The notes: a model not told the origin generated them from the sequence alone. Positions 7,090 to 33,305 are shown, numbered from the stretch's first letter. The stretch is 64,000 nt of DNA from Candidatus Bathyarchaeota archaeon (GCA_023488905.1 JAMDCQ010000010.1:12-64011); one strand, 5' to 3'. A program made the numbers and translations.

Positions 7090-7535
7090 TGTGATGCCCT
7101 CTTTTTGTATTCTGGCTTCATAACCAGCGACCCTTTATCGGTTGTCGCTAACTCGTAGAGGTCACTTTGTTTTATTGCGTCTCGGGGACAGCTTTCAACG
7201 CATTGATAGCAGAAAACGCATTTGTTTAAGTCGATTTGTGGACGCATTTTGCCCTCAACTTCAACGATTTCGATTGCTTTTGCAGGGCAGTCTCTGACGC
7301 AGACGTGACAACTTGAACCCCTCATGGCTTTGATGTCCACTCTGAAGTCCTCGCCGCATCCGAAGTCGATGGCGTTGCAGGCTTTGATTTCGTAGACCAA
7401 TTTACCTCTGCTTTCGGCAGGCAGCGTTGGCTTCACAAATGGGTACTTTGTGGTTGCAGGTTTAGTGAATAAATGGGATACCGTTCGCTTAAAGATTGGA
7501 GATATCCGCGATTTTGACTTCTTCTTTTCTGCCAT
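7086..7535 (-). CDS. nuoI: NuoI-family 2x[4Fe-4S] ferredoxin-type subunit
   Basis: Two CxxCxxCxxxCP motifs (CHVCVRDCP, CVFCYQCVESCP). I place the start at the ATG at 7535 (MAEKKK), 3 nt after the nuoH stop. The longer 7730 ORF would overlap nuoH. Confidence 0.85.
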   Translation of the reverse strand: MAEKKKSKSRISPIFKRTVSHLFTKPATTKYPFVKPTLPAESRGKLVYEIKACNAIDFGCGEDFRVDIKAMRGSSCHVCVRDCPAKAIEIVEVEGKMRPQIDLNKCVFCYQCVESCPRDAIKQSDLYELATTDKGSLVMKPEYKKRASQ

Positions 7536-7540
7536 CCTGT

Positions 7541-8557
7541 TTACACTCCAATTCCGAATGGATGATACACCCAAGTTACCAGAGCCACAGTTAACATCAG
7601 TGAGAGCAACGCTGCGGGTAGCAGTATTTTCCAGTTGCCGGTTAAGACTTGATCGATACGTAAGCGGGCCACCACTGTGGTTATGTACTCGCTGATTACT
7701 ACGACGACTAGGAGTTTTAGTACAAACCAAAGCGTGTAGAAGAACCAGTCCAACCCAAAGAACACTGGACCGCTGGAGCCGCCCAAGAACAACAAAACCA
7801 CCAATGCTGAGCCGAACACAACTTGGACATCGCGTGTTAAGTGGAGGAAGGCTAGTTTGGCGCCTGTGTATTCGGTTTCTAAACCGCCGACGAGCTCAGA
7901 TTCCGAGTGGGGAACGTCGAAGGGGTCGCGCTCCAATTCCGCTTGTATGGTAATTATAAACAGCACAAACGCCCATGGAGCCAATAAGATGAAGGGAAGG
8001 GATTGGCTTCCGGCTATGGTGGCGATGTTTAAGCTGCCAGCGATGAAAGCAGGAGTCAATGCGAGTATGTAGAGTGGAATGTCGTAGCCCAAAAACTGGG
8101 TTAAGACTCTTGCTGAACCGATTGTGCCATAGGGGTTCGCTGACGCCCAACCTGCCAAGAACAGAAGGAAGTTCGCAATGGTCGCGAAGGTTAGAATGAT
8201 AATCAAGTCGCCGTCGAAGCCGCCCGTTGAGAGAACGCTTGCGCCGTCGATAGGTAAAAAGCACATGGCGAAAACCATGATGGCAAACGCCAAAAGGGGA
8301 GAGTAGCGGAACACGAGTTTTTTGGTGTCCCTTGGCTCAATGTCTTCCTTGGTTAGGAGTTTGATGAAGTCTGCGAGGGGTTGAAGGATACCGCCGGGGC
8401 CAGCTACCATGGGGCCGACGCGGTTTTGTATGCGTGCTTCAAGTTTGCGTTCTACCCAATCACAGAACAACGTCAAGAACAGGATGAAGGTGAAGCCTGG
8501 AAAAACCAGAATTCGGAAGATCAACATTGGGTCAAGGACGAAATCCATGGTTATCAC
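7541..8557 (-). CDS. nuoH: NuoH-family membrane subunit
   Basis: 338 aa with RKLEARIQNRVGP, GILQPLADFIKL and ESELVGG blocks typical of NuoH/ND1/HycD. Confidence 0.88.
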   Translation of the reverse strand: MITMDFVLDPMLIFRILVFPGFTFILFLTLFCDWVERKLEARIQNRVGPMVAGPGGILQPLADFIKLLTKEDIEPRDTKKLVFRYSPLLAFAIMVFAMCFLPIDGASVLSTGGFDGDLIIILTFATIANFLLFLAGWASANPYGTIGSARVLTQFLGYDIPLYILALTPAFIAGSLNIATIAGSQSLPFILLAPWAFVLFIITIQAELERDPFDVPHSESELVGGLETEYTGAKLAFLHLTRDVQVVFGSALVVLLFLGGSSGPVFFGLDWFFYTLWFVLKLLVVVVISEYITTVVARLRIDQVLTGNWKILLPAALLSLMLTVALVTWVYHPFGIGV

Positions 8558-16878: not shown

Positions 16879-17204
16879 CTTGAGTACAGAGTATCAATAC
16901 ACAACCATATAAACCCTAACACATAACCCAAGCATACCAAAACACACCCAAACGCAACAACAAACATGAAACTCTATGAAAATAAACACCAAACCATATC
17001 AAAAACGCAAAAAACGCCTCAAAAACAAACTGTACAACACATCAACAGAAAAATCACCGCCTCCCTTACCGACAATAAACAAAGACAAAAGCGCATGGAT
17101 GAAACAAACAAACCAGTACATTAGGAACATTTACAATGAGACAACTTTGCTAACTTATAGCGATTAACCAATGGGGTAGATAAGGCATAACGGGATCATT
17201 AAAG

Positions 17205-17278
17205 TGCGGTAACCGGGATTTGAACCCGGGTCCTAGACTTGGCAAGCCTATGTACTAACCAAGCTGTACTATTACCGC
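17205..17278 (-). tRNA. tRNA-Gly (anticodon GCC)
   Basis: Hand-folded cloverleaf. Acceptor GCGGUAA/UUACCGC, D stem GUAC/GUAC, anticodon stem UAGGC/GUCUA with loop UUGCCAA, and T arm CCGGG-UUCAAAU-CCCGG. Discriminator A, no encoded CCA. Confidence 0.85.
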
Positions 17279-17634: not shown

Positions 17635-17712
17635 GCGGTCGTAGTCTAGTTTGGTCTAGGACATCAGCCTGCCACGCTGACGACCCGTGTTCAAATCCCG
17701 GCGACCGCACCA
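17635..17712 (+). tRNA. tRNA-Gly (anticodon GCC), second divergent copy, CCA encoded
   Basis: Acceptor GCGGUCG/CGACCGC, anticodon stem UCAGC/GCUGA with loop CUGCCAC, and T arm CCGUG-UUCAAAU-CCCGG with one U-C mismatch. Discriminator A followed by CCA. Confidence 0.8.
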
Positions 17713-18777: not shown

Positions 18778-20277
18778 CTAAATGTAATATTTGAGTCTGT
18801 TTTGTAGGTACTTATCCGAATCTGGTGGGGCATTTCTCAATATCTCTCCTACTCTTTTGGCAAAGCCTATTGTTATTGGAGCTTTCGTGCAAAATTTTGC
18901 ATTGTTCCAATTTAGTTTCGTTAACGCTAATGTTTCTTCACAAATATCGTCTATTGGTGAATTACCCAAATGCTGGAGAATTTCAAGTGGAGAAGGAACC
19001 CTTGGTCCAGGATACATGCCAAGGTATGGTATAAATCCGTTTGTATACAGGAGAACGCTTTCGTCAGGCAATCTAATCATTGTCCCCCGAATAGGTGGCT
19101 GTACGCCCCATCTTACGAGCTTAAGGTTTCTAGTGCCAAAAGCTACCAAATCAAGTGTTATCCCTTCGCTTAAACCTGCTTTAAAACCTTCAATTTCATA
19201 GCTTTCGTATTTCGAGGTTTTATGTACGACAACTCTTCTAGGGAGTTGGTCGTTTTTAGAACTCTTGTACTGCGTAATCGCTTGTGTAATAATAGACGAG
19301 GCTTCTTCCTTTGTTACATGAAGGGTATAATTCTCATCTGTAATTGCTTTGCCGCCTTTGAAAACATACCCTTCGGAATCCAATGAGAATACTTGAGACA
19401 GCGCTGTTTTAACTGAAGCTGGGTCAGACCTATCCCTAAAAAATGAAACCCCTACATAACAAGTATCTGCCATAAGTTTCCTAACCCGCCAAGGAAGTCT
19501 ATTTGATTTATAAAACAAAGCAACAATCAAATTCCAATAAGTGGTCGCATCATCCTCTCGATTAGGTACTTCTGAATTGTATGGACTTGTTGTGTGAGGT
19601 CTCAAAATCTGGATGGGAATTTTATACTTCATGCATATTATCTTTATCATACTGCGTAAGTCTGTGGGTCTGAATGCTTCTAGCGCAGGAGAGGGCATCC
19701 CAAAGAATGTATCAAGCGGTCGGTGAAGACGCCTTTCTTTTTCGATAAACTTTTCTAAACTACTTTTTCTTCTCATTCCTCTATAGCCAATAGCGCCCTC
19801 TATGCAGTAATAATCTACAATTTTAGGATAAGCTAACAATAGTAACTCTGGCGAGGGGTCTTTATCAAGTAATGCCTTGATTTTTTCTTCAACGATAAGG
19901 CTAAAAAGTTCGATTCTATTTGACAGCGAAACACTCTTTTCCATTTGTGTTCTTAAGGATTCACCGTCTATTTGAGCAGCCCCTTTTACGTTTAGACGGA
20001 TTCTCAATTTGCCGATCCCGGGGAAGGCTATGTGCAGAAAAGTTCTATCTTTGCCATACGATGTTACGTTCAATTTCTCAATCAAATTTCTTGTTGCTTC
20101 TATTGATGAGGCATCCCCAATGATCCCAATGTTGATGTCGTAGTTTGCCGATTTATCGCCAAGCGGCCCTACAAGTGTCCACCCCATCTTTGGATCGGGA
20201 ACTAGTATTCCTTCCCCGACTTCAATTTGCGGTTCTTCGAAATACCTTGCAACAGGCTGGAATCTGGATAATTTCAA
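18778..20277 (-). CDS. short prokaryotic Argonaute (MID-PIWI only, catalytically inactive)
   Basis: 499 aa. MID pocket pattern is R208-x3-K212-x10-Q223...K257. PIWI blocks are TCYVGVSFF, RRVVVHKTS and PITIGFAKRVG, with a KYYI C-terminus. The catalytic D/D/H positions read S/T/K. TTG start lies 7 nt after GGAGG. Confidence 0.85.
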   Translation of the reverse strand: MKLSRFQPVARYFEEPQIEVGEGILVPDPKMGWTLVGPLGDKSANYDINIGIIGDASSIEATRNLIEKLNVTSYGKDRTFLHIAFPGIGKLRIRLNVKGAAQIDGESLRTQMEKSVSLSNRIELFSLIVEEKIKALLDKDPSPELLLLAYPKIVDYYCIEGAIGYRGMRRKSSLEKFIEKERRLHRPLDTFFGMPSPALEAFRPTDLRSMIKIICMKYKIPIQILRPHTTSPYNSEVPNREDDATTYWNLIVALFYKSNRLPWRVRKLMADTCYVGVSFFRDRSDPASVKTALSQVFSLDSEGYVFKGGKAITDENYTLHVTKEEASSIITQAITQYKSSKNDQLPRRVVVHKTSKYESYEIEGFKAGLSEGITLDLVAFGTRNLKLVRWGVQPPIRGTMIRLPDESVLLYTNGFIPYLGMYPGPRVPSPLEILQHLGNSPIDDICEETLALTKLNWNNAKFCTKAPITIGFAKRVGEILRNAPPDSDKYLQNRLKYYI

Positions 20278-20279
20278 GG

Positions 20280-21779
20280 CTAGTCCTCCAAAGATGTCTC
20301 ATCGAGTGGGTTAATGTCTCCAGTTTCGTCATTGGTTACAACATAGTCTAAAGGTTCAGATTTCAGAGAATCAAGAAAATCTGCACCAGTATGTTGATCC
20401 TCGGCAATTCCAAAGCTCGTTTTAGAAGTTAATGACAGAATTGAAACAATTACTTTGCCAGGTTCTTGGCCTAAATGCACTTCTTCCTTGTTCCCTGCGA
20501 GAATATGAAGCCATAGTTTCATGTCGTACAAGTAGTTGTTATTATGATAGTAAACATTTTTCTTTGTGCTAATTCGTACATTCAATCGATTATCGAGAGG
20601 TTGCAAGCCATCCCTTGTAAGGACACGTATTGGTTCAATGATTAGGTATACTCCATTTCCCAGAATTGTAAATCTTAAACGACCGCCAAAATGTTCGCAA
20701 TATGTCAAACGACCGGTATTTTTGTTGATTTTTAAGTTAACGAGTTCACGAGTGCTAGTGGCCTTATATGGCGTCCATGTTACTGATGGTACAGACCCCC
20801 CAAAATATCTCATGTAATAACGGTCCCTATCGGCGTCATAAAAGAATCTTTTACTCTTACAAAGCTCTTTGAGATTAAAATTCAACAATTTGACTAGTTT
20901 TTGATTGAGTTTGGGGTCATCAAGCCATTCTTGCGTTGAGTGCTCGGCTCCTGAAGAGCTAACACAAAGGCTTAATGGGTTTAATTCATCAAATGGACAA
21001 AAAGAGTATATTAGCTCATCCTCTAATAGGAACGCGGGAGTTTTCACTTCACCTTTTAAGTTTTCTTTAATTTTGGCATATATGTCATTTGCAAATCGAT
21101 ATTTTGTATTTGCAGAAAAGATTTTGTCGGGCAGCTCCTTAACGGGGTATAGATTTGACCATAAAGTCTCTTCCAAGCAATCTGGCTTCATTTTATGGTT
21201 TAGGACATTCAATGCATCTATGGGGATTTCGGATGTGTCTCTTTCTTCAGATGTGCGTTTTAAAAGAGCCCAAAAAAGATGCCAAAATTCCTCACCTGTA
21301 GCCGCAACGGTTGCCGAATTTCTCCTAGTGTAAACAGTCCCTTGTCTGAAAGCGACTTTATCGATGCCGTGTTCATCCTTATAAGCGCCTTCTGATTTCG
21401 GGATTACTAGGGAACCGATCGAACCGTGGATAAAGAGAATGGGGAACTTTCGATTTTTCCCTGCGACTAAAGAAATGTGCTCGAAGTAAGTGATTTTTAT
21501 GTGTCCCGTTGTCCACTTTGAAAATTTTTCAACCCAAGTCTGTGAATCTTTATGGAAATTTTCATCTATCCCAATTGGCTTGAAGGTTCCATCTTGAACG
21601 CCAAATATAATGTACCCGCCGCCCGAGTTCGCCATGCCGTAGACATCTTTTGCTATCTCCAACCAGTCCTTTGTGGTATCGTTAAATTTTTCCTTGTAAT
21701 CAAGGTCGGAAGACTCAATTTTTCTATTAATGAGTTCTTGAGCCAACTCAGGGCTGATTTCCATTAACTCCCCTCTCAA
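20280..21779 (-). CDS. pAgo-associated protein: N-terminal Schlafen/AlbA_2-like domain fused to a putative APAZ region
   Basis: ESSDLDYKEKF...AKDVYGMANSGGGYIIFGVQDG...GTVYTRRNS matches the AlbA_2 pattern (E..lEfK...AfaNt.GG.l.iGV.d.G...yiR.gs). Its stop is 2 nt before the pAgo start. The APAZ assignment comes only from position and length. The ATG at 21764, preceded by GAGG, may be the real start. Confidence 0.6.
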   Translation of the reverse strand: MRGELMEISPELAQELINRKIESSDLDYKEKFNDTTKDWLEIAKDVYGMANSGGGYIIFGVQDGTFKPIGIDENFHKDSQTWVEKFSKWTTGHIKITYFEHISLVAGKNRKFPILFIHGSIGSLVIPKSEGAYKDEHGIDKVAFRQGTVYTRRNSATVAATGEEFWHLFWALLKRTSEERDTSEIPIDALNVLNHKMKPDCLEETLWSNLYPVKELPDKIFSANTKYRFANDIYAKIKENLKGEVKTPAFLLEDELIYSFCPFDELNPLSLCVSSSGAEHSTQEWLDDPKLNQKLVKLLNFNLKELCKSKRFFYDADRDRYYMRYFGGSVPSVTWTPYKATSTRELVNLKINKNTGRLTYCEHFGGRLRFTILGNGVYLIIEPIRVLTRDGLQPLDNRLNVRISTKKNVYYHNNNYLYDMKLWLHILAGNKEEVHLGQEPGKVIVSILSLTSKTSFGIAEDQHTGADFLDSLKSEPLDYVVTNDETGDINPLDETSLED

Positions 21780-21919
21780 CTCATTTCAGGGTCATCACAA
21801 GCTTAAGAGTTATTGCACACTATTATTATATTTTCAACGAATTTTTTTAATACTTTAACACTTTACTGTCTATCCTTAGTTATAGAAGCATCCCTTGAGA
21901 ACGCAGGTAAGGCAAAAAG

Positions 21920-22066
21920 TTAAGTTAACTCGCTTGCATGTTCAGCTTCTTTTATCATCTCGATTTTTCTTCCAGCATTCTTCATTCTTAAGTAAATGTA
22001 TTTAGTCTGAACCACTTTTTCGCCGTTTTCAAGTCTTACAAGAACAACCCCTTTCTCGTGTCCCAT
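21920..22066 (-). CDS. small hypothetical protein (48 aa, not in ORF track)
   Basis: MGHEKGVVLVRLENGEKVVQTKYIYLRMKNAGRKIEMIKEAEHASELT. The ATG is preceded by GAGGTGA at a 6-nt spacing. Confidence 0.35.
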   Translation of the reverse strand: MGHEKGVVLVRLENGEKVVQTKYIYLRMKNAGRKIEMIKEAEHASELT

Positions 22067-22376
22067 TAGATTCACCTCGCAGTTCTTGTTCAAGGGAAAC
22101 TTGGCTTAAAGTTTTTCAGAACTCAGCCATCGCCCAAAGTTACCTGAACCGAGGGAGGTCATAGGTCCATACGGAGAGATTGCGCGGTTTTCTACATTGG
22201 CTTTGGTTGGTTATAAAAGGAGTTTTTTGTTTGTGAAGATTTTTTATTGGGGTGGGTGTGGTGTTGGTTTGGTTGCGTGCGGTTGCCTGACTGTATGGGC
22301 TGTTGGGTATTGCACGGTGGTTCTTGTGGGGAAAATAGCGGTCGCTACATGGTGCCACACGCATAATCGCGTGTTT

Positions 22377-22516
22377 CTATGTATTCTTGTGAAGAAAATC
22401 GCATAGCCCACACCGAAACAGAAGATGAAAACGGTTGCAAACCCAAAACACAGCCGCCCCCAACTGCTGTCGTGTGGTGTGCCGTAAACCAAAACACCCA
22501 CATAAAGAACGCAGAC
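22377..22516. repeat. left copy of ~140-bp inverted repeat (83-bp perfect core 22426-22508)
   Basis: Direct comparison with the reverse complement of 25281-25420. The core is identical and identity decays outward. Confidence 0.85.
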
Positions 22517-22534
22517 ACAAAAAAGAAAAGAAGG

Positions 22535-23314
22535 CTAGTTTACGTCGTTGGTTTCGATTTTCTTTACCATCTCAGCTACAATCTTGGTGAATGGGTGGTC
22601 AGGTTTATCCTGTGCGAAGATAAAGTTGCCTTCGGCGCGTAGAACCTCGCAGAAACATGGTACCATGCCAAGCATGGGCACTTTGTAGTCCGCCTTTATT
22701 TTTGTCTGCATCTCAGTCTTTCGGGATGATAAAGACGGGTCCAGCACCTTGTTTAGGACCAAGCCTGTTTTCTTCTCGAAGAGGTTGTAGAGTTCGGCTA
22801 GCATGCGTTTTGTGCCGTCTACGTCTGAGCGGTCGCCTGTTGTTGCAACCACCACGAAATCTGCTGCTACGATGGCGTTGATTGAGGAGTATTGGAGTCC
22901 TGGGCTTGTGTCGAAGACTAGGTAGTCGAATTTTTGGTCTCTTAGAAGGCTCTCTCTGAGCGCTAAAATTCTGCCTAACGCTCGCATTTCCCATTTACGG
23001 TCTTTGGAGGACATGTCGCGGATGGCTTCCGTAGACGGGTTAGCGAGGCAAGCGTAGAATTTTCCACTGCCGGGTATTCTTGGGCTCATGTCGACTATGG
23101 CTTTGTCGATTTCGCAGCTGTTGTTTAAATAATCGTTGAACCAAGTTTCGACGTTTTGGGCTTTTAGTATGGCAAATAAGCTTGGAGCTCTGAAGTCTAA
23201 GTCGAAGAGGCAAACTTTTTTTCCGTTCTTAGCAAGCGTGGCGGCAATGTTGACGGCCATTGAGGTTTTTCCAGTTCCACCCTTATAGGAGTGTACAGCG
23301 ATTATTTTGCTCAT
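22535..23314 (-). CDS. ParA/MinD-family P-loop ATPase
   Basis: Deviant Walker A HSYKGGTGKTS. LVFDTSPG and the overall MinD/ParA layout fit. 259 aa. Confidence 0.9.
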   Translation of the reverse strand: MSKIIAVHSYKGGTGKTSMAVNIAATLAKNGKKVCLFDLDFRAPSLFAILKAQNVETWFNDYLNNSCEIDKAIVDMSPRIPGSGKFYACLANPSTEAIRDMSSKDRKWEMRALGRILALRESLLRDQKFDYLVFDTSPGLQYSSINAIVAADFVVVATTGDRSDVDGTKRMLAELYNLFEKKTGLVLNKVLDPSLSSRKTEMQTKIKADYKVPMLGMVPCFCEVLRAEGNFIFAQDKPDHPFTKIVAEMVKKIETNDVN

Positions 23315-23318
23315 AATC

Positions 23319-23759
23319 TCAACTCTGTGCTTCCCTGTCTATGTAGAAGTAAGCTTTGCGGCCTTTGCGCTCCTTTTTAATGTAACCCATGATAACTAAT
23401 TGATTAAGATAAGCACTCTCAACTGCTCTAGCTCGTTGCGTCTGCTCCGCAACTTCCTCGGCTGTCGCTTTTGAGCACCGGCAAATCGTCATAGCGGTCT
23501 TTCGAAGGTGATCAGGCATAGAGAGAAGCGTCATGACATCCAACGACGCGTCGGGTATGGCTGGTACGTTATGTGGGTTAGGGTTTGCTGGACTGTTTTT
23601 TTGGATCTCGATCATGACTTCCATTTTCTCGTTAAGTTTCTCGAGGCTCTCCTCTATTTTTTCGAGTATGTTTAAGGGTTTTTTGCTGGATAGGTCGTTT
23701 CTAATCACTTTTATCCCCGAGTTGTTTTTCATGTGTACAGTTGTTGGATAACTAAACAC
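23319..23759 (-). CDS. winged-helix protein co-transcribed with ParA (candidate partition adaptor or centromere binder)
   Basis: 146 aa. The C-terminal part, ATAEEVAEQTQRARAVESAYLNQLVIMGYIKKERKGRKAYFYI, is MarR/TrmB-like wHTH. Its stop is 4 nt before the ParA start. Confidence 0.5.
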   Translation of the reverse strand: MFSYPTTVHMKNNSGIKVIRNDLSSKKPLNILEKIEESLEKLNEKMEVMIEIQKNSPANPNPHNVPAIPDASLDVMTLLSMPDHLRKTAMTICRCSKATAEEVAEQTQRARAVESAYLNQLVIMGYIKKERKGRKAYFYIDREAQS

Positions 23760-23898
23760 GTTAAGTGTTTATTAAGTCTTGCGATACTGAACTAAGTATT
23801 TTTGAAAAACATTTAACACTAAAAAACACCCAAAATTAAATGAAAAAATAAAGCAGACCTAAAAAAGAATAATAAACGGGGGTTAGAAAGTTGGGAGT

Positions 23899-24192
23899 TT
23901 AGTAGGGAACAGAAACCTGATTCCTTGCTTCCTCTACTATTGGCAGAACTTGTTTTAGTTCCTTGAAGTACTTCAAAACGGTAATGCCACGTTGGGTGAC
24001 AGCGAAAACTACACGCCGTTTACCAATCGTGCGCTCTTCCACTAGACCCTGTTTCATCAGAAAGTCTAGGTATTCTTTGAGGACACTGCAGTTAACGTTT
24101 GCCTTGTACATGACGTGGGTTAGCTTTAGGGGGCCACGATGTGCAAGTACCGTAAGGATATCGACGTACATTTCTAGTTTAGATCGACGCAC
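23899..24192 (-). CDS. small winged-helix DNA-binding protein
   Basis: 97 aa. ILTVLAHRGPLKLTHVMYKANVNCSVLKEYLDFLMKQGLVEE is a common archaeal wHTH family pattern. Confidence 0.65.
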   Translation of the reverse strand: MRRSKLEMYVDILTVLAHRGPLKLTHVMYKANVNCSVLKEYLDFLMKQGLVEERTIGKRRVVFAVTQRGITVLKYFKELKQVLPIVEEARNQVSVPY

Positions 24193-24282
24193 TTTATACT
24201 CCTCGTGTTTTGGTAAAGATTCTCAGTCTTGATATAAATCAATTATGTATTACTAATCAGTATTAAACTCCATAGATAGGGC

Positions 24283-24633
24283 TTAGCAGGCTGCTTTCTC
24301 TATGGTATTGTTTAACACGTTTAATCTATTTTCGAAGGCAGTCACCATGTCATCTAGCAATATTTCACGCAATTCTGTAGACAATCCGGTGATCTGTTCA
24401 TCAAAAACGTTGGCTAATTTAGCCTCTAATTGTTTTCTGTTTTTATCCGCAATTTGTTTCATGTACACATCATCCTCCAATTTACACAATGGAAACTCCA
24501 ATTGTTGGAAGCCATATAACTGACTTATGAAAGCGTCCTCTGAATCAAAAATAAGTACCAAAAAACTGAACCCACCCTCGGATTCGCGGATACTTAGTGT
24601 TAATCCTCTGTTCCTCAGCGTTATCACTTTCAT
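24283..24633 (-). CDS. hypothetical protein
   Basis: 116-aa ORF with no motif. Same strand as the partition genes. Confidence 0.4.
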   Translation of the reverse strand: MKVITLRNRGLTLSIRESEGGFSFLVLIFDSEDAFISQLYGFQQLEFPLCKLEDDVYMKQIADKNRKQLEAKLANVFDEQITGLSTELREILLDDMVTAFENRLNVLNNTIEKAAC

Positions 24634-24840
24634 AATGTCTCAAGTCATAAATAACCTAATGTATGTTGCAACGAATCCACACACTTTCTATTCATGCCAC
24701 CGCCTTGACAAAAAATTGAGTTTCTATTCCAATTAGTTTTGTTGTTTATGCGCAGCAACCACATAATGATTTAACCCGCCAAGATATTCAATTATTGAAT
24801 AAAATGCCATTTTTATGGTTACATTTCGGGCAGTCTTTTT

Positions 24841-25167
24841 ATGTTAAGTAATGTTAAGGAGAAATCGTGGAGCGTTTTTCTGGTTAACGGCTACATGGCA
24901 AACGACCAAGTTCGAGCACTGCGATGCGAAAACTGCAAGGCAACAACCGAAGTTTTAGTTGCAAACCACCACAACCCCAACCTGCTCCTCTATGGCTGCA
25001 AGGCTAGCAAATGCAGGCATCGTCTTCTTCGGCTGGATCTGACCAATGAAATATCAAACAAACTGACGTTTCAACAAGGAACAAACGCTACTATGGCAAA
25101 GGAAATCTACTGCGAAACAATTGCCCCCACAATTTCCTCCTACAATGTGGATATTAGGCAAACTTAA
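24841..25167 (+). CDS. hypothetical protein with possible zinc ribbon (CxxC...CxxxxC)
   Basis: 108-aa ORF containing CENCKA...CKASKC. The internal Met at nt 24895 may be the start. Confidence 0.3.
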   Translation: MLSNVKEKSWSVFLVNGYMANDQVRALRCENCKATTEVLVANHHNPNLLLYGCKASKCRHRLLRLDLTNEISNKLTFQQGTNATMAKEIYCETIAPTISSYNVDIRQT

Positions 25168-25280
25168 CCTGCTTGCACGACCGATTGCAAATGCCAGAGT
25201 CACACCATAAACGTAGGCGTTGAAGCTGCAGGTGAGAAATAAACGCCGAAGGTGGGGGTGAATTCGATCAGTGCAGCTTT

Positions 25281-25420
25281 GTCTGCGCTCTTTATGTGGG
25301 TGTTTTGGTTTACGGCACACCACACGACAGCAGTTGGGGGCGGCTGTGTTTTGGGTTTGCAACCGTTTTCAACGTCTGCTTCGGTGTGGGCTGTGCAATT
25401 TCCACCACACGCCATACATG
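25281..25420. repeat. right copy of ~140-bp inverted repeat (perfect core 25289-25371)
   Basis: Reverse complement matches 22377-22516. Confidence 0.85.
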
Positions 25421-25515
25421 CCTCTATGTTGAAACCAACACCCTGTGAACGTGAAACCATGATGAACTTGAAATTATTTCCACATCCCCTCGGCCGCCAC
25501 ACCCAAGCAGAGTGA

Positions 25516-25668
25516 TGGAGAGAGTCGAAGAAGCCATCCAAGCCAGCACCCACCAAAGTTACAAAAGCGCTTTCCAAATTGGGCCTTAAAATTACCAGAA
25601 AGCAGGGCAACCACGTGGTTCTAAAACATCCATATGACCGCCTCAGGTCTGATTACACGACAAACTGA
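25516..25668 (+). pseudogene. HicA-like toxin remnant (no start codon, truncated)
   Basis: The open frame reads ...PTKVTKALSKLGLKITRKQGNHVVLKHPYDRLRSDYTTN*. It resembles the HicA core (aLeklGf...rqkGSHv.l.hp) but lacks a start codon and the C-terminal part. Confidence 0.35.
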
Positions 25669-25922
25669 GCACTGCACTCTACTTTATTGTATTGCGCTCT
25701 ATGTGCCGTACCGTTTTCTGTAGTCCTGTAGAACAACAATACAGCCACATAAGCGTCAACAACGCAATTTTGCTCCCATCCGCAATTCAAACTTGATCCT
25801 TTTCCACCAACAAACCTGTACACATGCAGAACTGCTCTACACTTGGCATGTTAGAAATCAAATAAGCCCATAGCGCGAGATATGGATTTGGAGGCTGAAA
25901 GAAAAGCTCGAGGGAGAAGTAA

Positions 25923-26168
25923 ATGCAATCAGCTGTAGGGCCTTTGCTGCTGTTAACGTCCTCGGCGATGTTTTCGTGTATAGTAATCGGCTTTGCGGTA
26001 GGTGTGTCCGTTCAAACCCTTCAAGACCCCCAAACTCTTGCGCAGGAACAGTTTAACCGCTTAGAACTTGCACTTAATCAATCGAGTGGTTGGTTCAACC
26101 AAACTTACCCCCCACAAACCCCAAACCCACAACCCCCCACACAAAACGAAACATCGCCCTCCCCCTAA
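25923..26168 (+). CDS. small hypothetical membrane-anchored protein with Pro/Gln-rich tail
   Basis: 81-aa ORF with an N-terminal hydrophobic helix. Confidence 0.3.
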   Translation: MQSAVGPLLLLTSSAMFSCIVIGFAVGVSVQTLQDPQTLAQEQFNRLELALNQSSGWFNQTYPPQTPNPQPPTQNETSPSP

Positions 26169-26275
26169 TTTTTTTCCGCCCACAAAGAGCATAATTGATT
26201 GCCTGCTTTGTCTTCATTTTGACAGCCAGCTTTAAAAGCAAATGGGGAATCATCGTTAACTCGTTTGTGATCTCT

Positions 26276-26458
26276 ATGGGGAATGAGGGGAAAGGGACAT
26301 TATTTAGACGAAAAGACGATCGATATCTACTTTATCTGCCAGTTCGAGTGGTGGACGACAGCATGTTCCCGCTTAAATGTGACGGTTCCATGCCTGTTAA
26401 AGTGAAATTCAACCCAGCCGACGGCAAATTAATCGTGGAAAAATGGCGCGAAGAATAA
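26276..26458 (+). CDS. AbrB/SpoVT-like small DNA-binding protein (possible antitoxin type)
   Basis: MGNEGKGTLFRRKDDRYLLYLPVRVVDDSMFPL...DGKLIVEK resembles the swapped-hairpin AbrB pattern. Start placed at the internal Met of ORF 26195-26458. Confidence 0.35.
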   Translation: MGNEGKGTLFRRKDDRYLLYLPVRVVDDSMFPLKCDGSMPVKVKFNPADGKLIVEKWREE

Positions 26459-26552
26459 CCGCCTAATTTAACACTTTTTTGTCGCAGTCTTACAGTCACA
26501 TATTCTTTTAAAACATACCAGCTTTTGGCTTGGCTAAAGAGATGCCCTAAAC

Positions 26553-26678
26553 ATGTATGAAACCTACAAGTGCCCCATCTGCAAAACAGAATTCCAAAAC
26601 CCAGAAGAACTAAGACAACACAGACTGGCGACACATAAAGGCCACACGCACTTCGCCAAAGTGGGTGCTTCTCAGTAG
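26553..26678 (+). CDS. small C2H2 zinc-finger protein (41 aa, not in ORF track)
   Basis: MYETYKCPICKTEFQNPEELRQHRLATHKGHTHF has the CxxC-x12-HxxxxH pattern. Confidence 0.45.
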   Translation: MYETYKCPICKTEFQNPEELRQHRLATHKGHTHFAKVGASQ

Positions 26679-26750
26679 GTCTCTGTTGTTGCTGCATGTT
26701 GTTCGCCAACTATTTATCCATCAAAGAAACACTACAAATGAGGCAAGCCG

Positions 26751-27194
26751 ATGAAAGAACTTACCGTAACTAGTTCCGCCTTCAAAAACAATCAGCGTAT
26801 CCCCGAAAAATACACTTGCATAGGCGAAGGCATAAACCCGCAGCTCTCCATCGACGGCATTCCCGAAGGCACAAAAAGCCTTGCATTAATTTTTGATGAC
26901 CCTGACGCGGTAGGTGGAACCTTCGATCACTGGATACTCTACAACATCCCGCCCACCCAAAGCCAAATCGGCGAAAACTCTTTTGTAGGCATTGCGGGCT
27001 TAAACAGTGACCAGGAACCCGTCTATGCGCCGCCCTGTCCGCCGCCTGGCAAAAACCACCGCTACACTTTCAAAGTTTACGCGTTGGATGTTACGCTGAC
27101 TTTAGGCGGAAAAGCTGCGAAACGCGATGTTGAAAAAGCCATGAAAGGGCATCTCCTTGCCGAGGGAAAGCTGGTGGGGCTGTTTAACCGATAA
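26751..27194 (+). CDS. YbhB/YbcL-family PEBP (Raf-kinase-inhibitor-like) protein
   Basis: ALIFDDPDAVGGTFDHWILYNIP and GKNHRYTFKVYALD are PEBP signature blocks. Confidence 0.85.
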   Translation: MKELTVTSSAFKNNQRIPEKYTCIGEGINPQLSIDGIPEGTKSLALIFDDPDAVGGTFDHWILYNIPPTQSQIGENSFVGIAGLNSDQEPVYAPPCPPPGKNHRYTFKVYALDVTLTLGGKAAKRDVEKAMKGHLLAEGKLVGLFNR

Positions 27195-27264
27195 CAACCA
27201 AGCGACCTGTGGCGGATTTAGTTTAACGTTAAATAGTCATTTTGTTGATTATTATTGAGCAGGT

Positions 27265-28410
27265 TTGAACCGCAAACTCACCATAGCCATAACTGTCGTC
27301 TTGATTTTGGTTGTTGTTTTTTCGCTTTTTTTGGCGCAGCTCTTGCTTAGCAACAGCCAAGCACAACCCCGAGAATTCTACGTAGGCGTCATGTTCGCGT
27401 ATGGCAATGAAACCTCGCAGGTGAAAGCGTTGGTTGATAAAGTGAAGGATTACACCAATCTCTTTATACTCGGTTCAGTGGACCTGTTATCTAACGAATC
27501 TGCCCTCAACGAAGCCTGCGACTACATCTACAACGCAAACCTAAACTTTATCGTCCAGTTCCGAGGACTCCAAATATACAACTACACCATCACTGACTGG
27601 ATCGAGACGGCACACCAAAGGTACGGTGACCTCTTTTTAGGCATCTACCGCTACGATGAACCCGGCGGAAACCAAGTTGACAACGGTCCCGCCCAACTCA
27701 TAAACAGCACAGCTTACACGCCCGGCATGACCTACGTAGACATGGCTCGGAGCTACGTGGGTAACCTCTCCGTTTTTCCCTGCTACTACCTCGACTATAC
27801 ACCAAAGATGTTCACTTCAGACTACGCACTTTATTGGTTTGACTACCAAGCAGACTACACTACGATCTTCGCCGAATTTGTGGGCAACCAGAGCAGAGAA
27901 CGCCACATCGCCCTATGCCGAGGCGCAGCGGAAGCCTTCGATAAAGACTGGGGCGCCGTAGTGACATGGAAATATGATCAAGCACCCTACCTTGAGAGCG
28001 GAGAGGAACTCTACAGCGACTTGGCTTTGGCGTACAGTGCAGGCGCCAAATACGCCCTCGTCTTTAGTTACCCAGAAGTTACTGACTTTGGAATCTTGGC
28101 GGAGGAGCACTTTGACGCTCTAAGGCGTTTCTGGGATACCTTGCATAGTAACCCCGCAAGCTTTGGCACAAACAACCCCGAAGTCGCCTACGTCGTGCCC
28201 GCGGATTACGGTTTTGGTTTCCGAAGACCAGACGACACCATCTGGGGCCTGTTCCCACCCGACGAATACTCGGCTAAAATCTTCAACGACGCCCAAGCGT
28301 TAACTACCACGTATGGTGCACGCTTAAACATCTTCTACGACGAACCACAAATAGCAACTCTGCTGGGGAACTACACAAGGGTCTATTATTGGAACCAAAC
28401 AATCCCCTAA
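27265..28410 (+). CDS. hypothetical N-terminally anchored extracytoplasmic protein
   Basis: 381-aa ORF with an N-terminal TM helix and several N-x-S/T sequons. No catalytic motif recognised. Confidence 0.55.
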   Translation: MNRKLTIAITVVLILVVVFSLFLAQLLLSNSQAQPREFYVGVMFAYGNETSQVKALVDKVKDYTNLFILGSVDLLSNESALNEACDYIYNANLNFIVQFRGLQIYNYTITDWIETAHQRYGDLFLGIYRYDEPGGNQVDNGPAQLINSTAYTPGMTYVDMARSYVGNLSVFPCYYLDYTPKMFTSDYALYWFDYQADYTTIFAEFVGNQSRERHIALCRGAAEAFDKDWGAVVTWKYDQAPYLESGEELYSDLALAYSAGAKYALVFSYPEVTDFGILAEEHFDALRRFWDTLHSNPASFGTNNPEVAYVVPADYGFGFRRPDDTIWGLFPPDEYSAKIFNDAQALTTTYGARLNIFYDEPQIATLLGNYTRVYYWNQTIP

Positions 28411-28486
28411 AAAGCCCGTCATATTTGCCGCCTATTAGCGGTTCTATGTTGAAAACTATAAGAGGGGGCTCAGTAATGGCTGTTTT

Positions 28487-29128
28487 TCAACCAAACCGAG
28501 CTTTTTTCTGCTTCTTTTTGGGTGCCGCCTTGGGTTTGCTCATCGCGAAAGCTTTCCTCAAATCCGCTGGAGTGGTTGCGGTGAAAAAGGATTTGAAGTC
28601 AGGGTCAATCTGCTCAATAACCATCGTTGAGAGGTAACGTACGCCTCGTAGCTTCTCCACCATAGCTTCCATGTCAACTTCGCCCTCCGCCAATGCCGCC
28701 CTGGAGGCGTCAAGCGCCATTTTGGTGCAGTAAACCGCATGTAGCGGTTCGCATTCTTGGTTAGTCCAACGGGGCACCACCGCCGCCTTACCAACGCATA
28801 ACTCAAACAGCAACGACAGAAGCTCATGCGAAACAAAGGGGCTGCCAGCAGGCAAAACCAGAGTGTAGTCGCCTTTGGTTGCTTCAAAACCCGCCAACGC
28901 CCCAGATAATGCGCTCTCGTCTTTGCTTTCGTTAACTGTAAACCTTATGTCGGGTGCGACGAATTTGGCGTAGGCGTCGGCGCATTCCTGCGAATCAACA
29001 ACCACCACTATCTCGTCGACAAGGTCTCCTATTGCGGTTACTACGTAGTTTAGTAGGGGTTTGCCTTCTAACTCTGCAACTGCCTGTGCGCTAATTCCAC
29101 CTGCTAAAATAACTGCTGACCTATCCAT
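28487..29128 (-). CDS. MobA-like NTP transferase (molybdenum cofactor guanylyl/cytidylyl-transferase family)
   Basis: The N-terminal AVILAGGIS...GKPLL nucleotide-binding motif and the ~190-aa core fit the family. Lys-rich tail. Confidence 0.65.
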   Translation of the reverse strand: MDRSAVILAGGISAQAVAELEGKPLLNYVVTAIGDLVDEIVVVVDSQECADAYAKFVAPDIRFTVNESKDESALSGALAGFEATKGDYTLVLPAGSPFVSHELLSLLFELCVGKAAVVPRWTNQECEPLHAVYCTKMALDASRAALAEGEVDMEAMVEKLRGVRYLSTMVIEQIDPDFKSFFTATTPADLRKAFAMSKPKAAPKKKQKKARFG

Positions 29129-29218
29129 AACAACATCACAATGGCAATCCTAGCATGTATAGTAGAGTTTAAGTTTTTTGCACAGCACTGCGTGCAAACA
29201 GACGGGGAAAAAGGGGGG

Positions 29219-30910
29219 TTAGATTTCGGCTTTGCGAATCAATCCTTCTGCGCTGTTGAGGTTTATTCGGTAGAACACAACTGTGATGACTGCGGCGATG
29301 ACGGCGCTGATTATTACGGGGAGTGTGAAGTCGATGGCGGCAAGGGATTCAAATGTGAGGGGGGAGGACAGCAGCATGCCGAGGAGGGAGGGTATGAAGG
29401 GGGAGAGTATGCCTAGGGCGGCTAGTGCGCAGGCACCTAAGCTCATGTATGACCATGAGGGGCGTATCATTCGGGGTCTTGGAGTAACAGAGAAATCAGC
29501 GCCCTTGAAGCCGATAGATAACGCAATGGAGCCCAATGGGAAAACTAAGAAGAGCCCTTCTAGGAAGCCGACTGCGATTATGTTTATCGGCGGATTGTAG
29601 AATATTGTGCCTATTGTTCCCGTTATGAGCAGCGTGACTATCGCGAAGAAGAGTAGGAAAGCAAATTTGCTCTTAACCAAGTTCTTGGGCGATATTGGCG
29701 ATGCGTAGATTCTCCACACTGCTTCGCCTTCTTCGCCTATCAACATGTTTCCAAGCGACATAGCCATGATGCTTGAGGATAACAGGAAAATCATCCCCAG
29801 AAACATTAAGCTGACTTCTTGTGGTGCCCCTTGATTGGTGATACCGATGGACTGCATCAGCGGGATTATGACGAAAACTATGGGTACGATGAATAAACCG
29901 ATTAGTTCCCGTCTGCGAGTGAAGGAGCGAATGTCTTTGCGTATTATTGCTGCTTCAGCGGAGGTGAAGCCGAGTTTGCCCAGCATTCCTGTTTTTGGTG
30001 CGTATGTTCCGCCTGCTTGGATGCGGATTGCGGGTGGCTCGTAGAGTCCGAAGCGCTCATTGAGTTTTATGCCTAGATAGTAGAGTGCGGCTATGAACGC
30101 AGCTGTTAATGCAATGAAGAGTAGACCTTCTAGGATTATGCCGTTGTATAGATAGAAGAGTGTTAAACCTGGCCAGATGAAGGGGATAAACCAGAAAGAA
30201 CTTTGGAAGGTGTTTAAGCCTTGAATGAAGTTTGTGAAGCCCTGTGTTATCGAGAAGTAGACGACGTAGAAGATCAAGAAGAATGTGATAGAGCCAATGA
30301 ATCTGACCCAGACGGCTGCTCTGCCGCTTGACTTGTAAACTGCGCCAGTGAAACGCACTTGAATGATCCTTAGGATCTCGGTAGTGGAGCTACCCATGAA
30401 TGCCGCAGCTAACATGAAAACTGTAGTTACGAGCGCGGGCAAGATTAAACCGTTGAAGCCTGCAAAGACAAGCAGCCCAGCCGAGAAACCTATAGTCAAC
30501 GCAACGGGTAACCCCAGCAAATTAGACAGTATGGATGCTAAGGTTTGTTCCTGCCACGTAATGGGTAACCAGTAGTTTACCCGTGTGGTCACTTTGACGC
30601 CGCTTAGTTGAATTTGCTGCAGCATCGAGAAAACAATGCTGAAAATCAGCACCAGTGTGGGCATGATGATAAAGAAGCCTAGTGCAGAAGTCTCAAGTGA
30701 AGGCAAGGGAATTTCGCTGGGTGCCGAGTAGACTTCAGCGGCGATTGCGTTTGCGCCCAAACCGCCAAGGACACCGATTATAGCTGCAACCCAGTAGGGC
30801 CAATAAGCCAAAATGCGGTTTTCCCTATAGCGGGTCTTTTTTACACCTCGAATGAGCCTGCCTGATTTGCGCTCAACCCGTATCAGGGCGAGAACGTTTT
30901 TCCAGTTCAT
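29219..30910 (-). CDS. polytopic membrane permease of ABC-2-type exporter
   Basis: 563 aa with more than 10 TM segments. Overlaps the upstream ABC ATPase gene by 4 nt. Confidence 0.65.
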   Translation of the reverse strand: MNWKNVLALIRVERKSGRLIRGVKKTRYRENRILAYWPYWVAAIIGVLGGLGANAIAAEVYSAPSEIPLPSLETSALGFFIIMPTLVLIFSIVFSMLQQIQLSGVKVTTRVNYWLPITWQEQTLASILSNLLGLPVALTIGFSAGLLVFAGFNGLILPALVTTVFMLAAAFMGSSTTEILRIIQVRFTGAVYKSSGRAAVWVRFIGSITFFLIFYVVYFSITQGFTNFIQGLNTFQSSFWFIPFIWPGLTLFYLYNGIILEGLLFIALTAAFIAALYYLGIKLNERFGLYEPPAIRIQAGGTYAPKTGMLGKLGFTSAEAAIIRKDIRSFTRRRELIGLFIVPIVFVIIPLMQSIGITNQGAPQEVSLMFLGMIFLLSSSIMAMSLGNMLIGEEGEAVWRIYASPISPKNLVKSKFAFLLFFAIVTLLITGTIGTIFYNPPINIIAVGFLEGLFLVFPLGSIALSIGFKGADFSVTPRPRMIRPSWSYMSLGACALAALGILSPFIPSLLGMLLSSPLTFESLAAIDFTLPVIISAVIAAVITVVFYRINLNSAEGLIRKAEI

Positions 30911-31686
30911 CGGAGAAGTTCCTCAACGACGGGTTTTAAGTCGCCTGTTCCGGTTAACTTGAGGAATATGTCTTCTAAGCCGCTACTGGGTAAACTTGCT
31001 TTTTCTCTAAGCTCGTTAATGGTGCCCAAAGCCAAGATGTTGCCTTGGTACATGATGCCGATTCGGTCGCATACTGCTTCGGCGATTTCAAGCACGTGTG
31101 TGGATAGGATGGTGGTTACGCCTTGCAGTTTGAGTTGATGGAACAGGTCTTTGGCGATTCTTGCGCTTCGGGGGTCTAAGGCGTTTAGGGGTTCATCGAG
31201 TATGAGGAGTTTGGGTTTGTTGAGGAACGCTGAGATTAAGCTGAGTTTCTTCTTCATGCCATCAGAGTAGCTGTTTATCATGTCGCCTTCTCGGCCTTCA
31301 AGCTGGAGGGCTTTTAAGTACTCGTTTATGCGTTGCTGCTTCTCAGCTGGCGGCACGCCGTAGATGTCGGCGATGAAATCGAGGTATTCTATTCCAGTTA
31401 AAAACTCATATACGCTGGGCGATTCGGGGACGTAACCAACCTGCTGCTTGACAGCGACGGGTTCTTTCTGTACGTCTAGGCCTAGTACGGTGACGGAGCC
31501 GGCGGTTGGTTGCACCAATCCTAAGAGCATTTTTAGGGTGGTGGATTTGCCTGAGCCGTTTGGGCCTAGGAGTGCGAAGATTTCGCCTGTTTGTATGGTT
31601 AGGTCGATGTTGTTTACGGCGACTAATTCGTCGTAGCGTTTTGTTACTGCTTTTAGTTCTACTGCGTTGGGGGCTTCCATGTTCAA
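30907..31686 (-). CDS. ABC transporter ATP-binding protein (ABC-2/DrrA-like)
   Basis: Walker A GPNGSGKST, signature YSDGMKKKL and Walker B LILDEP. Confidence 0.9.
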   Translation of the reverse strand: MNMEAPNAVELKAVTKRYDELVAVNNIDLTIQTGEIFALLGPNGSGKSTTLKMLLGLVQPTAGSVTVLGLDVQKEPVAVKQQVGYVPESPSVYEFLTGIEYLDFIADIYGVPPAEKQQRINEYLKALQLEGREGDMINSYSDGMKKKLSLISAFLNKPKLLILDEPLNALDPRSARIAKDLFHQLKLQGVTTILSTHVLEIAEAVCDRIGIMYQGNILALGTINELREKASLPSSGLEDIFLKLTGTGDLKPVVEELLR

Positions 31687-31925
31687 ATCACCCTATTTTT
31701 ACCAAAATACAGTAAAGATTTACCTTTAAATATTTCGGTAAACTAATTCAGGTAGGCCACTTCCCAATAGAAAGCCATCAGTATTTAAGCCTACAGCAAA
31801 TTCCACGATTCAACAACAAACAAGCGCCTTACCACCAAAAAACCAACTCAGCCCTCATAAGTGAGTCAACAAAATTAATTAAGACTGCCAAGTACATGGT
31901 ACACAAAAACGGCTGAGCCCCAAAA

Positions 31926-33305
31926 ATGAAAGCTGCCCTAAAAACAGTTCTTTCTAAACGCGCCATCACCATCGTCCTTTCAGCCCTGCTCATAATGACC
32001 GCCATAAACACCTACCTGATTTTGGAGGGCACCCGCTTAGCCAACATCACCAACGTAGTAAACTATGACTTTGTGCTCTCTCAGGACGGCGTCACCTACA
32101 AACTCAAAAATAGCTACACAGGCTACATCTCTGAGCATCCAAAAAGCGCTTCCTCAGCGCTTAACGCGGCGTTTTCGCAGGGCAAATCCGTCTACCTAAA
32201 CCCCGGGACATACGAGTTAACCGACGACGTCTACGTGGTCAATAAGTTTGATGCGAAAATCGTTAGTGACGAAGCCATAATTCAGGGTAACGGATACAAA
32301 ATCGTTGTTTACGGGGATGACTACACTAAATCACAGGACGCATTGATTTCGGGGTTAACAATCATAAATGCGACGGTTCGAGTTGAGAACTCTTTTGCCA
32401 CAACCATAACCAACACCAAATTCATCAACGCAACCACAGGCATAGAATTCGCAAACACAAACACATGGAGCGAATACAACAAAGTGGAGAATTGCCAGTT
32501 CATCAACAACACCGAAGGCATCGCTTTCCGAACCCCCGTCAACGGCACCCAAATCGGCAACGACATCGGGAACACCACTGGTTCCTACGCATCCTCCGTA
32601 ATCGAACGCTGCTACTTTAACATCCAAGACTTCTCAGTGGGCATAAGCGTAGAAAAGTGGGCAGAATTCTCTGACAGCCAAATTCAAAATGTACGCTTCT
32701 GGATGGGAGAAAACGACCATCGCAGTAACCAAACCGCACTGCACGTAGATGGCTCCATGTATCAGACGCTGCTGTTTGGAGTGGTTTTTGAGTGTTTCAC
32801 CTCTGACCCAATTTACATATTTGCCATAGACTTAGGCGAAAACTGTGATCCCGCGCCCATTCTTGACGGTGGCGTAAGCTTCTTGGGCAACTGGACTACA
32901 CGAATTCATAATCCATTCGGGATTTGGCTTTCGGGCGTAGGAAGCGTGTTTGAGCGGGAGGTTGCAGTTCCAATCGGCGTCAACGGGCAATACGGCGGAA
33001 ACGCAAGCATAGAGTGCAAACCACTCAAGATTTTTAACTTTAAACCCAAAATCGAGGTTTCAGGCAGCTTCAGCCAAAACGAAATCGTTACGGTACGAAT
33101 CCGAATAGAATACATCGACAACGTTATTTCCAGTCCCGTTACTCGAACCTTCAATGGTAGCGGCTCAGCGTGGCTGACTGATGATGAAATGATGCAACTT
33201 TATTCGTCTCAGAGTATTGTTTGGGCGATAATTGTTGATGCTAAAACAAACGTGGGTTCAACTGGGGCGTCGGTTACAGTGACGGGTTACGGCGCATCAG
33301 GGTAG
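31926..33305 (+). CDS. secreted or anchored protein with right-handed parallel beta-helix (PbH1) repeats
   Basis: N-terminal TM or signal segment. Repeated ~22-aa units such as ITNTKFINATTGIEFANT and VENCQFINNTEGIAFRT. Confidence 0.55.
   Translation: MKAALKTVLSKRAITIVLSALLIMTAINTYLILEGTRLANITNVVNYDFVLSQDGVTYKLKNSYTGYISEHPKSASSALNAAFSQGKSVYLNPGTYELTDDVYVVNKFDAKIVSDEAIIQGNGYKIVVYGDDYTKSQDALISGLTIINATVRVENSFATTITNTKFINATTGIEFANTNTWSEYNKVENCQFINNTEGIAFRTPVNGTQIGNDIGNTTGSYASSVIERCYFNIQDFSVGISVEKWAEFSDSQIQNVRFWMGENDHRSNQTALHVDGSMYQTLLFGVVFECFTSDPIYIFAIDLGENCDPAPILDGGVSFLGNWTTRIHNPFGIWLSGVGSVFEREVAVPIGVNGQYGGNASIECKPLKIFNFKPKIEVSGSFSQNEIVTVRIRIEYIDNVISSPVTRTFNGSGSAWLTDDEMMQLYSSQSIVWAIIVDAKTNVGSTGASVTVTGYGASG

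Follow-up and report, generated by a model that had tools for sequence, protein, structure and literature searches.

The 64,000-nt stretch of Candidatus Bathyarchaeota archaeon DNA analyzed here (GCA_023488905.1, JAMDCQ010000010.1:12-64011; hereafter the window) contains a pair of short inverted repeats that bracket a block of five open reading frames (ORFs), including a gene for a ParA/MinD-type P-loop ATPase. It is probable that three statements hold jointly of this arrangement: the arms belong to a dispersed family of non-coding repeats, the block between them is native to the chromosome, and the core shared by the arms has been homogenized by recombination. In this account, the two arms are members of a lineage-specific family whose polar units measure about 150-190 nt and carry an almost invariant 42-nt head. 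In most relatives, one member lies immediately 3' of ParA; three lineages have a second, inverted one beyond the block; and the family has spread to tens of loci in the lineage of the window. A recent homologous recombination event between the two inverted members would have produced their perfect 83-nt core, and a crossover within the same arm homology would flip the 2.76-kb block. As to what the repeat might do, we regard each of the functional readings weighed below as unlikely.

A repeat search of the window recovers the pair as 22388-22517 and 25280-25409, with arms of 130 nt that are 93% complementary and lie 2762 nt apart. Both copies read outwards. The left one (the a-copy, minus strand) shows family similarity that continues weakly to about 22330, with an nhmmer profile match at 22523-22361, and the right one (the b-copy, plus strand) shows similarity on to about 25447-25475, with an nhmmer match at 25274-25447. 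In a base-by-base comparison, the first mismatches between the aligned copies fall at 22509/25288 and 22425/25372; hence, 22426-22508 on the minus strand is the exact reverse complement of 25289-25371 on the plus strand, a core of 83 nt precisely as given in the original prediction, a set of claims made earlier from the sequence of the window. The extent of the imperfect arms and their sharp inner ends had been described correctly as well: BLAST stretches the similarity to 22379-22517/25280-25419 (140 nt, 91.4%), and a weaker, gapped similarity reaches outward up to about 22325/25480. On the inner side the similarity ends abruptly, 17 nt from the ParA stop codon (22535-22537) in the left arm and 113 nt beyond the stop of the ORF at 24841-25167 (orf108) in the right arm. 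Two 30-mers from the core, searched with up to three mismatches against all 64 kb, each match both arms only, and shuffled sequences predict no match; a chance origin of the inverted repeat is thus far exceeded. The 42-nt head, CTGCGCTCTTTATGTGGGTGTTTTGGTTTACGGCACACCACA, occupies 25283-25324 (+) in the right copy, with its equivalent in the left copy at 22473-22514 (-); across tens of copies in the source metagenome it hardly varies, and it is found again in other metagenomes.

The ORFs between the arms are as the original prediction listed them, and four of the five could be named by Pfam and PDB sequence searches. An operon on the minus strand opens with a 116-aa ORF (24283-24633), of which only the C-terminal ~60-67 residues are kept in frame in relatives. 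It continues with a 97-aa, Sso10a-like winged-helix protein of the HTH_45 family (23899-24192, from Pfam and PDB sequence searches), a 146-aa protein with a C-terminal winged helix (23319-23759), whose best sequence match among solved structures is a weak one to the pNOB8 centromere-binding protein AspA (E 0.015-0.02), and the ParA/MinD-type ATPase itself (22535-23314), a conserved chromosomal gene in Bathyarchaeia. Divergent from the operon, on the plus strand, lies orf108 (24841-25167), which codes for a Cys-rich protein of 108 aa and is conserved in all relatives examined. The genes had been called plasmid-like, with the repeats as possible ends of a captured module, and neither description holds. 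The window ParA has more than 2900 homologues, the best 120 of which are 81-97% identical and lie on contigs of up to 3.3 Mb; those among these 120 that carry a source name all come from Bathyarchaeota/Bathyarchaeia. The gene order orf108, ~60-aa ORF, HTH_45, winged-helix protein and ParA is found in every relative fetched (loci are referred to below by L numbers). With L005 (GCA_026014685.1), the closest long contig, the window is collinear over 22520-25121 and 26216-32982 at about 85% identity, so the orientation of the block with respect to its right flank (PEBP, a 381-aa gene, NTP_transf_3, 12TM and ABC genes) is the native one. A captured plasmid or integrated module is not supported, the enclosed genes being neither absent nor displaced in the relatives examined and the right flank likewise being shared. 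Elsewhere the window carries archaeal chromosomal genes (Nuo, a family B polymerase, HMG-CoA reductase), and exact look-ups of its proteins hit solely the Logan contigs of its own source run (L002 and L003). The enclosed genes therefore form a native, conserved chromosomal par-like block of Bathyarchaeia.

Two observations concern individual genes of this block. Gene callers give 59-63 aa in relatives for the first operon gene, and residues 50-116 of the window ORF share one frame and its upstream part another; judged from these alignments, the 116-aa call at 24283-24633 is probably too long, and the DNA upstream of the conserved ~60-aa part is conserved and non-coding, including a motif at 24756-24766 that is taken up below. 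In three soil small-RNA metatranscriptomes (X5-X7), the segment of a close relative corresponding to 23878-24469, with the HTH_45 gene and the ~60-aa ORF, has a depth of about 550-2900 versus about 90 for ParA and its partner, and several of these HTH_45/~60-aa ORF contigs end in Illumina adapter sequence.

The repeat unit acts as DNA or RNA and not as a protein. It had been suggested that the arms are duplicated small ORFs, each encoding a small hydrophobic protein read outwards (MWVFWF...). The frame is open in both window copies, for 57 and 87 aa, and by manual reading some 30-nt variant fragments of other copies translate conservatively in it. However, every substitution between the two window copies is non-synonymous in this frame, and neither the outward ORF nor any of the other five frames finds a homologue among 5.8 billion proteins, which include the genes called on the contigs of the source run. 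In an alignment of ten copies from six lineages, no frame is stop-free throughout: L012 has TTG TGA in place of the ATG TGG of the window, and an L013 copy has a stop at codon 7. The indels in this alignment are mostly of 1-2 nt, and the two copies of L020 differ from each other by a 1-nt indel. Among the copies in the mine-tailings metagenome SRR10267473 (X1), which contains 95% of the sampled words of the window, a manual count places 12, 11 and 9 variable positions at the three codon positions, with no excess at the third. A protein encoded by each copy is thus scarcely credible. Searches for RNA structure were likewise negative. Rfam 15 gives no match at gathering score in the window and none up to E = 10 in 21780-26200, and RNAalifold, run on six copies (both strands) and on ten copies, yields -1.7 to -3 kcal/mol with no consensus structure, its pairs being confined to the invariant TGTGG/CCACA with no significant covariation. 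Single-sequence folds of the repeat are not significant (z = 0.15 and -1.6); a head hairpin closed by TGTGG/CCACA is possible in five of seven heads, with z of about -0.2 to -2.4 under RNA parameters.

Copy number was estimated from the word (k-mer) depth of Logan contigs aligned to the region at 80% or 90% likeness. In X1, word depth is about 24-26 over the flanking genes and rises over the repeat to about 240-325 at 90% likeness. With the threshold at 80%, the summed depth of the head is about 2900-3700 against 25-39 for ParA, and it drops along the unit from the head level to about 1000 and then to 200. The same imbalance between head and ParA at 80% likeness is seen in X2 (335 vs about 6), X8 (103 vs about 3.5) and X3 (20 vs about 3.2). 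Because the depth of the head lies so far above that of ParA, there should be tens of copies per ParA-bearing genome in this lineage, a figure that is drawn from contig k-mers and that may be an overestimate, given that ParA genes below 80% nucleotide identity go uncounted; any sharing of the head with other organisms would also inflate it. In X1, 61 contigs overlap the repeat and their inner flanks fall into several unrelated classes, while within the head (25284-25324) no position varies in 2% or more of the depth. Heads with different flanks also occur in four other metagenomes, with sediment, mine drainage and soil RNA among the habitats. The original prediction had held that occurrence at many unrelated loci would make the repeat a generic element akin to miniature inverted-repeat transposable elements (MITEs). 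The 61 contigs with their varied flanks are such an occurrence, and the repeat is dispersed by this criterion, but its old tie to the ParA block goes beyond what a generic MITE would show.

In sequence collections the family leaves little trace. An exact-pattern scan of GTDB representative genomes with a 44-mer gave no match and with a 20-mer one chance match (L001). Among JGI metagenome contigs, a 22-mer gave none and a gapped tail pattern three chance matches (L009-L011), exact-pattern scans of IMG/VR gave one chance match only (L021), and blastn against PLSDB plasmids and phage records gave no match to the repeat. A search of the literature on Bathyarchaeia ParA or repeats found nothing relevant. 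The repeat family is previously undescribed, with no match beyond chance in Rfam, PLSDB plasmids, phages or IMG/VR. It belongs with the dispersed intergenic repeats, among which its conserved link with a par-like operon is unusual.

This link emerges from a search of the window and all fetched loci with a family profile built from six copies, which places family members solely at the ends of the ParA block. A copy lies immediately 3' of ParA in seven of nine lineages (the window, L008, L012, L013/14, L016-18, L019/20 and a soil RNA contig), and three of these, the window, L013/14 and L019/20, have a second, inverted copy across the block. The inverted repeat of L020 (3839-4004/6813-6978; 166 nt, 87% complementary) has a spacing of 2808 nt, near the geometry of the window. 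In L008, a tail remnant alone stands on the side of the second copy, and in L004-7 and L015 the operon is present but neither end carries a copy. At the ParA side, L005 presents a clean empty site in which CTCTCTTT directly abuts AGGAAAAATC, and L008 and L012 hold 118-122 nt between those same flanks. The ParA-adjacent copy shares one site in lineages whose ParA differs by 12%, marking it as an old resident and not a recent insertion. On these comparisons, the association of the repeat with the ParA block is old.

The two copies of a pair also resemble each other more than they resemble copies elsewhere. Over the shared core, identity within a genome is 88% for the window pair, 93% for the L020 pair and 70% for the L013 pair, and identity between genomes is 50-68%. 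The window copies further share six states unlike the X1 family majority (25329, 25347, 25364, 25372, 25379 and 25397), which makes them each other's closest relatives. The greater likeness within genomes than between them implies recombination or gene conversion between the two copies. We infer that the perfect 83-nt core stems from recent homologous recombination, either as gene conversion or as a recent local inverted duplication, and that it reflects neither coding constraint nor the end of a plasmid module. The Logan contigs of the source run break inside this core. Through the homology of the arms, the 2.76-kb block is also potentially invertible by ordinary homologous recombination. The arrangement recalls concerted inverted repeats such as those of chloroplasts and repeat-flanked invertible segments, which likewise have arms closer within than between genomes and an identical core with diverged edges. 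It differs from them in that the arms are very short (130-166 nt) and part of a larger dispersed family, and in that inversion is only potential.

The earlier suggestion that the repeats are sites of recombination or inversion therefore stands in part: the likeness of the pair implies recombination, and both copies lie at synteny break points, but no recombinase is encoded in or beside the block. To the left of 22520, the window stops matching L005, L008 and L012 and carries a low-GC stretch with a short prokaryotic Argonaute (pAgo) system instead. On the right, a segment of 1.09 kb (25122-26215), with the right copy and an 81-aa ORF, is missing from L005. A site-specific switch programmed to invert the ParA block would account for the inverted arrangement and the identical cores, and the surroundings of the block are indeed rearranged among relatives. 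The window and L005 have the NTP_transf_3 gene upstream of the block (+), whereas L008 and L020 have it upstream on the other strand (-) and L013 and L015 downstream (+). In L008, the segment from PEBP to NTP_transf_3 is inverted, beginning at the remnant of the second copy. Nevertheless, Pfam scans reveal no integrase or invertase among the ORFs in and around the block, the orientation of the block with respect to HD-Lyase_1 and UbiA is equal in the window, L005 and L013, and the arms are members of a dispersed family; such a switch is very improbable. Given the constant orientation of the block to its distant flanks, these loci do not reveal a simple inversion mediated by the repeats, and a simple inversion history based on the position of NTP_transf_3 was dropped. 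A distinction between L-type and R-type tails as evidence of inversion was also abandoned, the two kinds of tail grading into each other.

Several points weigh against the joint account of dispersal, native block and homogenized core. In all searches of the 64-kb window (with 30-mers, BLAST and the profile), no copies beyond the two arms were found, and the copy number per genome carries the caveats given above. The position of the second copy is not strictly conserved: in L013 it is 5' of orf108, whereas the window and L020 have it on the 3' side. The L013 pair, at 70%, is hardly closer than the up to 68% that it shares with the copies of other genomes, and independent local duplications could replace gene conversion as the cause of the likeness within genomes. 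Finally, the account has to accommodate a mechanism of spread that shows neither clear terminal inverted repeats nor a target duplication or a partner transposase.

This last point bears most directly on the possibility that the repeat is a selfish, non-autonomous mobile element with no host function—a MITE, a repetitive extragenic palindrome (REP) or a derivative of IS200/IS605—and the ParA pair simply two insertions. We hold this to be possible, though on the unlikely side. The units are multi-copy, short and non-coding, and their presence or absence is clean, as between the empty site of L005 and the 118-122 nt in L008 and L012. The likeness extends to MITEs, REPs and bacterial interspersed mosaic elements (BIMEs), and the palindrome-associated transposable elements (PATEs) derived from IS200/IS605, with which the family shares a length of about 120-190 nt, a lack of coding capacity, tens of intergenic copies that frequently follow immediately 3' of a gene, clean-edged presence/absence polymorphism, and service as a substrate for recombination. 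Elements derived from IS200/IS605 would insert 3' of a fixed short target and have subterminal hairpins but neither terminal inverted repeats nor a target duplication; in all copies here, (T)CTTT stands just before the head, and CTCTTT is kept at the L005 empty site; the L008 unit ends in a 6-bp hairpin, CAACAT-TTG-ATGTTG. Decayed, opposite-orientation head-like sequences lie 290-460 nt away from the copies in the window. One of these, at 25726-25760 (-), about 290 nt past the right copy, includes TTATGTGGCTG and may be the remnant of one more repeat copy; the other, an uncertain one at 22223-22271 (+) outside the left copy, scores about 2.8 standard deviations above shuffles. These two weak sequences are all that a check for terminal repeats returned, with none beside the copies of L008, L013, L016 and L020, and the comparison of empty L005 with filled L008 and L012 for a target duplication gives an ambiguous TTT(T) at both borders. 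The hairpins are weak, TnpA/TnpB are not nearby, the window encodes no REP-associated tyrosine transposase (RAYT), and no transposase with matching ends was found, nor any match in plasmid and phage collections or IMG/VR. The family departs from MITEs, REPs and PATEs in that its terminal inverted repeats and target duplication are not clear, no strong palindrome is seen, and neither a partner transposase nor a RAYT was identified, and in having one member fixed at the same ParA-side site across diverged lineages.

The position of the copies just after genes raises the further possibility of a 3'-end RNA element, that is, a shared 3' untranslated region (UTR), terminator or stabilizer transcribed with the upstream gene. 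Copies begin 12-45 nt downstream of a stop codon, reading the same way as the gene that it ends, or else follow T-rich tracts; runs of T4-T6 are conserved across lineages at fixed alignment positions, and many copies are located where two convergent genes meet. In a close relative, a soil metatranscriptome contig continues for 67 nt beyond the ParA stop and thereby enters the head, and the TGTGG/CCACA-closed hairpin can form in five of the seven heads. These RNA contigs are unstranded, however, and may contain DNA; the second copies of L013 and L020 are not read by the upstream gene in the same manner, and the folding results described above give neither a consensus structure (-1.7 to -3 kcal/mol) nor significant z-scores. 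The original prediction had proposed just such a shared terminator or 3' UTR: the positions are compatible with it, but ParA has T-tracts of its own that precede the repeat and that are present also in the repeat-less L005. An element of this kind is improbable as the explanation of the family. Two other candidates on the nucleic-acid side were set aside. A C/D-box small RNA was rejected, with an ATGATGA at about 25455 but no D box, and an outward promoter for the flanking genes is unlikely because the next genes are mostly convergent.

A last alternative gives the repeats a role tied to the block itself: they could be cis-acting, centromere- or operator-like sites for the enclosed AspA-like and/or Sso10a-like winged-helix proteins. 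These would bind the head motif (TTATGTGGGTG...) and TGTGG...CCACA pairs at sites on either side of the operon and across the chromosome. In several lineages the oldest family members flank the par-like operon at its two ends, and the protein encoded just upstream of ParA has AspA of pNOB8 as its best match among solved structures. A head-like motif, TTATGTGGTTG, lies in the divergent promoter region of the operon at 24756-24766 (-) and at the same place in L005 and L008. The pattern TTATGTGGNTG occurs five times in the window versus 0.09 expected, with four of the five within 22495-25752, one of them being the promoter-region site conserved in L005 and L008; the fifth exact match, at 63578-63588 (-), is far from the ParA locus and has no other similarity to the repeat family. 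TGTGG and CCACA together reach 20-23 per kb in the units versus 2.2 per kb in the window, a ten-fold difference, and the conserved pairs never covary, as expected of sequence-specific DNA sites and not of RNA stems. ParA systems are known to use centromere-like sites such as the AspA site of pNOB8, parC1 and parC2 flanking par2 of pB171, chromosomal parS and the sites of SegB. The family resembles these in being repeated cis sites beside or on both sides of a ParA operon that encodes small DNA-binding proteins, at one or both ends in seven of nine lineages, and in the related motif of the operon's promoter region. It differs in that the units are far longer than known centromere motifs, that binding is only predicted, and that the operons of some relatives (L004-7 and L015) have no flanking copies. 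Moreover, the motif pattern was set after the promoter site had been seen, so its enrichment arises partly by construction, and a 15-mer search with three mismatches was not significant. The AspA match is weak (E about 0.02), the single-sequence model of the 146-aa protein has a predicted local distance difference test score (pLDDT) of 37.7, too low to be of use, and an invariant 42-nt head at tens of loci resembles duplicative spread more than the conservation of binding sites. We consider binding by these proteins doubtful. In a bolder and likewise improbable form of this reading, the units would serve a Bathyarchaeia partition system, made up of an AspA-like winged-helix protein and ParA/MinD, as its centromere-like or operator sites on the chromosome; they would flank the operon in inverted orientation, recur in its promoter region and be spread along the chromosome, and gene conversion would maintain their identity within a genome. 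A different kind of cis site, the origin recognition box (ORB) of archaeal replication origins, was rejected. ORBs have TTCC...GAA core motifs (PMC1904270) and stand inverted around an AT-rich region beside orc1/cdc6; the tail motif TTCTTGTGGAGAAAA has TTCT and not TTCC, the window has no Orc1/Cdc6, and the arms lie 2.8 kb apart around genes.

The surroundings of the ParA block gather mobile genes. The low-GC stretch (0.39-0.42) that begins right past the left repeat and is absent from the fetched relatives includes, in 18778-21779 (-), a short pAgo of 499 aa (PADLOC pAgo class I, E 1.6e-113) and, upstream of it, a 499-aa partner that combines a Schlafen/AlbA_2 domain at its N-terminus with an APAZ-like (PNTD1-PNTD2) region at its C-terminus. 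The two resemble a short-pAgo defence system whose effector is of the Schlafen type. Where the stretch ends on the side away from the repeat, two different tRNA-Gly(GCC) genes, at 17204-17278 (-) and 17635-17712 (+), stand back to back 360 nt apart and are about 80% alike over aligned 121-nt stretches; one of them may have arrived with an inserted element. To the right of the block, past the repeat and before PEBP, 26553-26678 codes for a 41-aa protein with a single C2H2 zinc finger that is also called in L005 (41 aa). Among the relatives, L019 has a DDE_Tnp_1 transposase (7119-7964) inserted just past its ParA-adjacent copy; this insertion is missing in the sister contig L020 and cuts the inverted repeat from 166 to 116 nt. 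Downstream of ParA, L016-18 have HicA and an IS240-type transposase, and a PIN/RHH pair lies upstream in L019/20.

Bathyarchaeia are abundant and uncultured, and to our knowledge the segregation and rearrangement of their chromosomes are wholly uncharacterized. The dispersed repeats, the native block and the homogenized core together mark the ParA block as a strongly conserved chromosomal locus with an associated family of non-coding repeats, whose flanking copies are kept alike within a genome. In practical terms, these repeats cause assembly breaks in the metagenome-assembled genomes of the group. Were they selfish, they would still mark rearrangement hot spots: each copy coincides with a break in synteny, and one of them adjoins the short-pAgo defence island. 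Were they bound by the winged-helix proteins of the block, they would offer a testable handle on chromosome partition in archaea.

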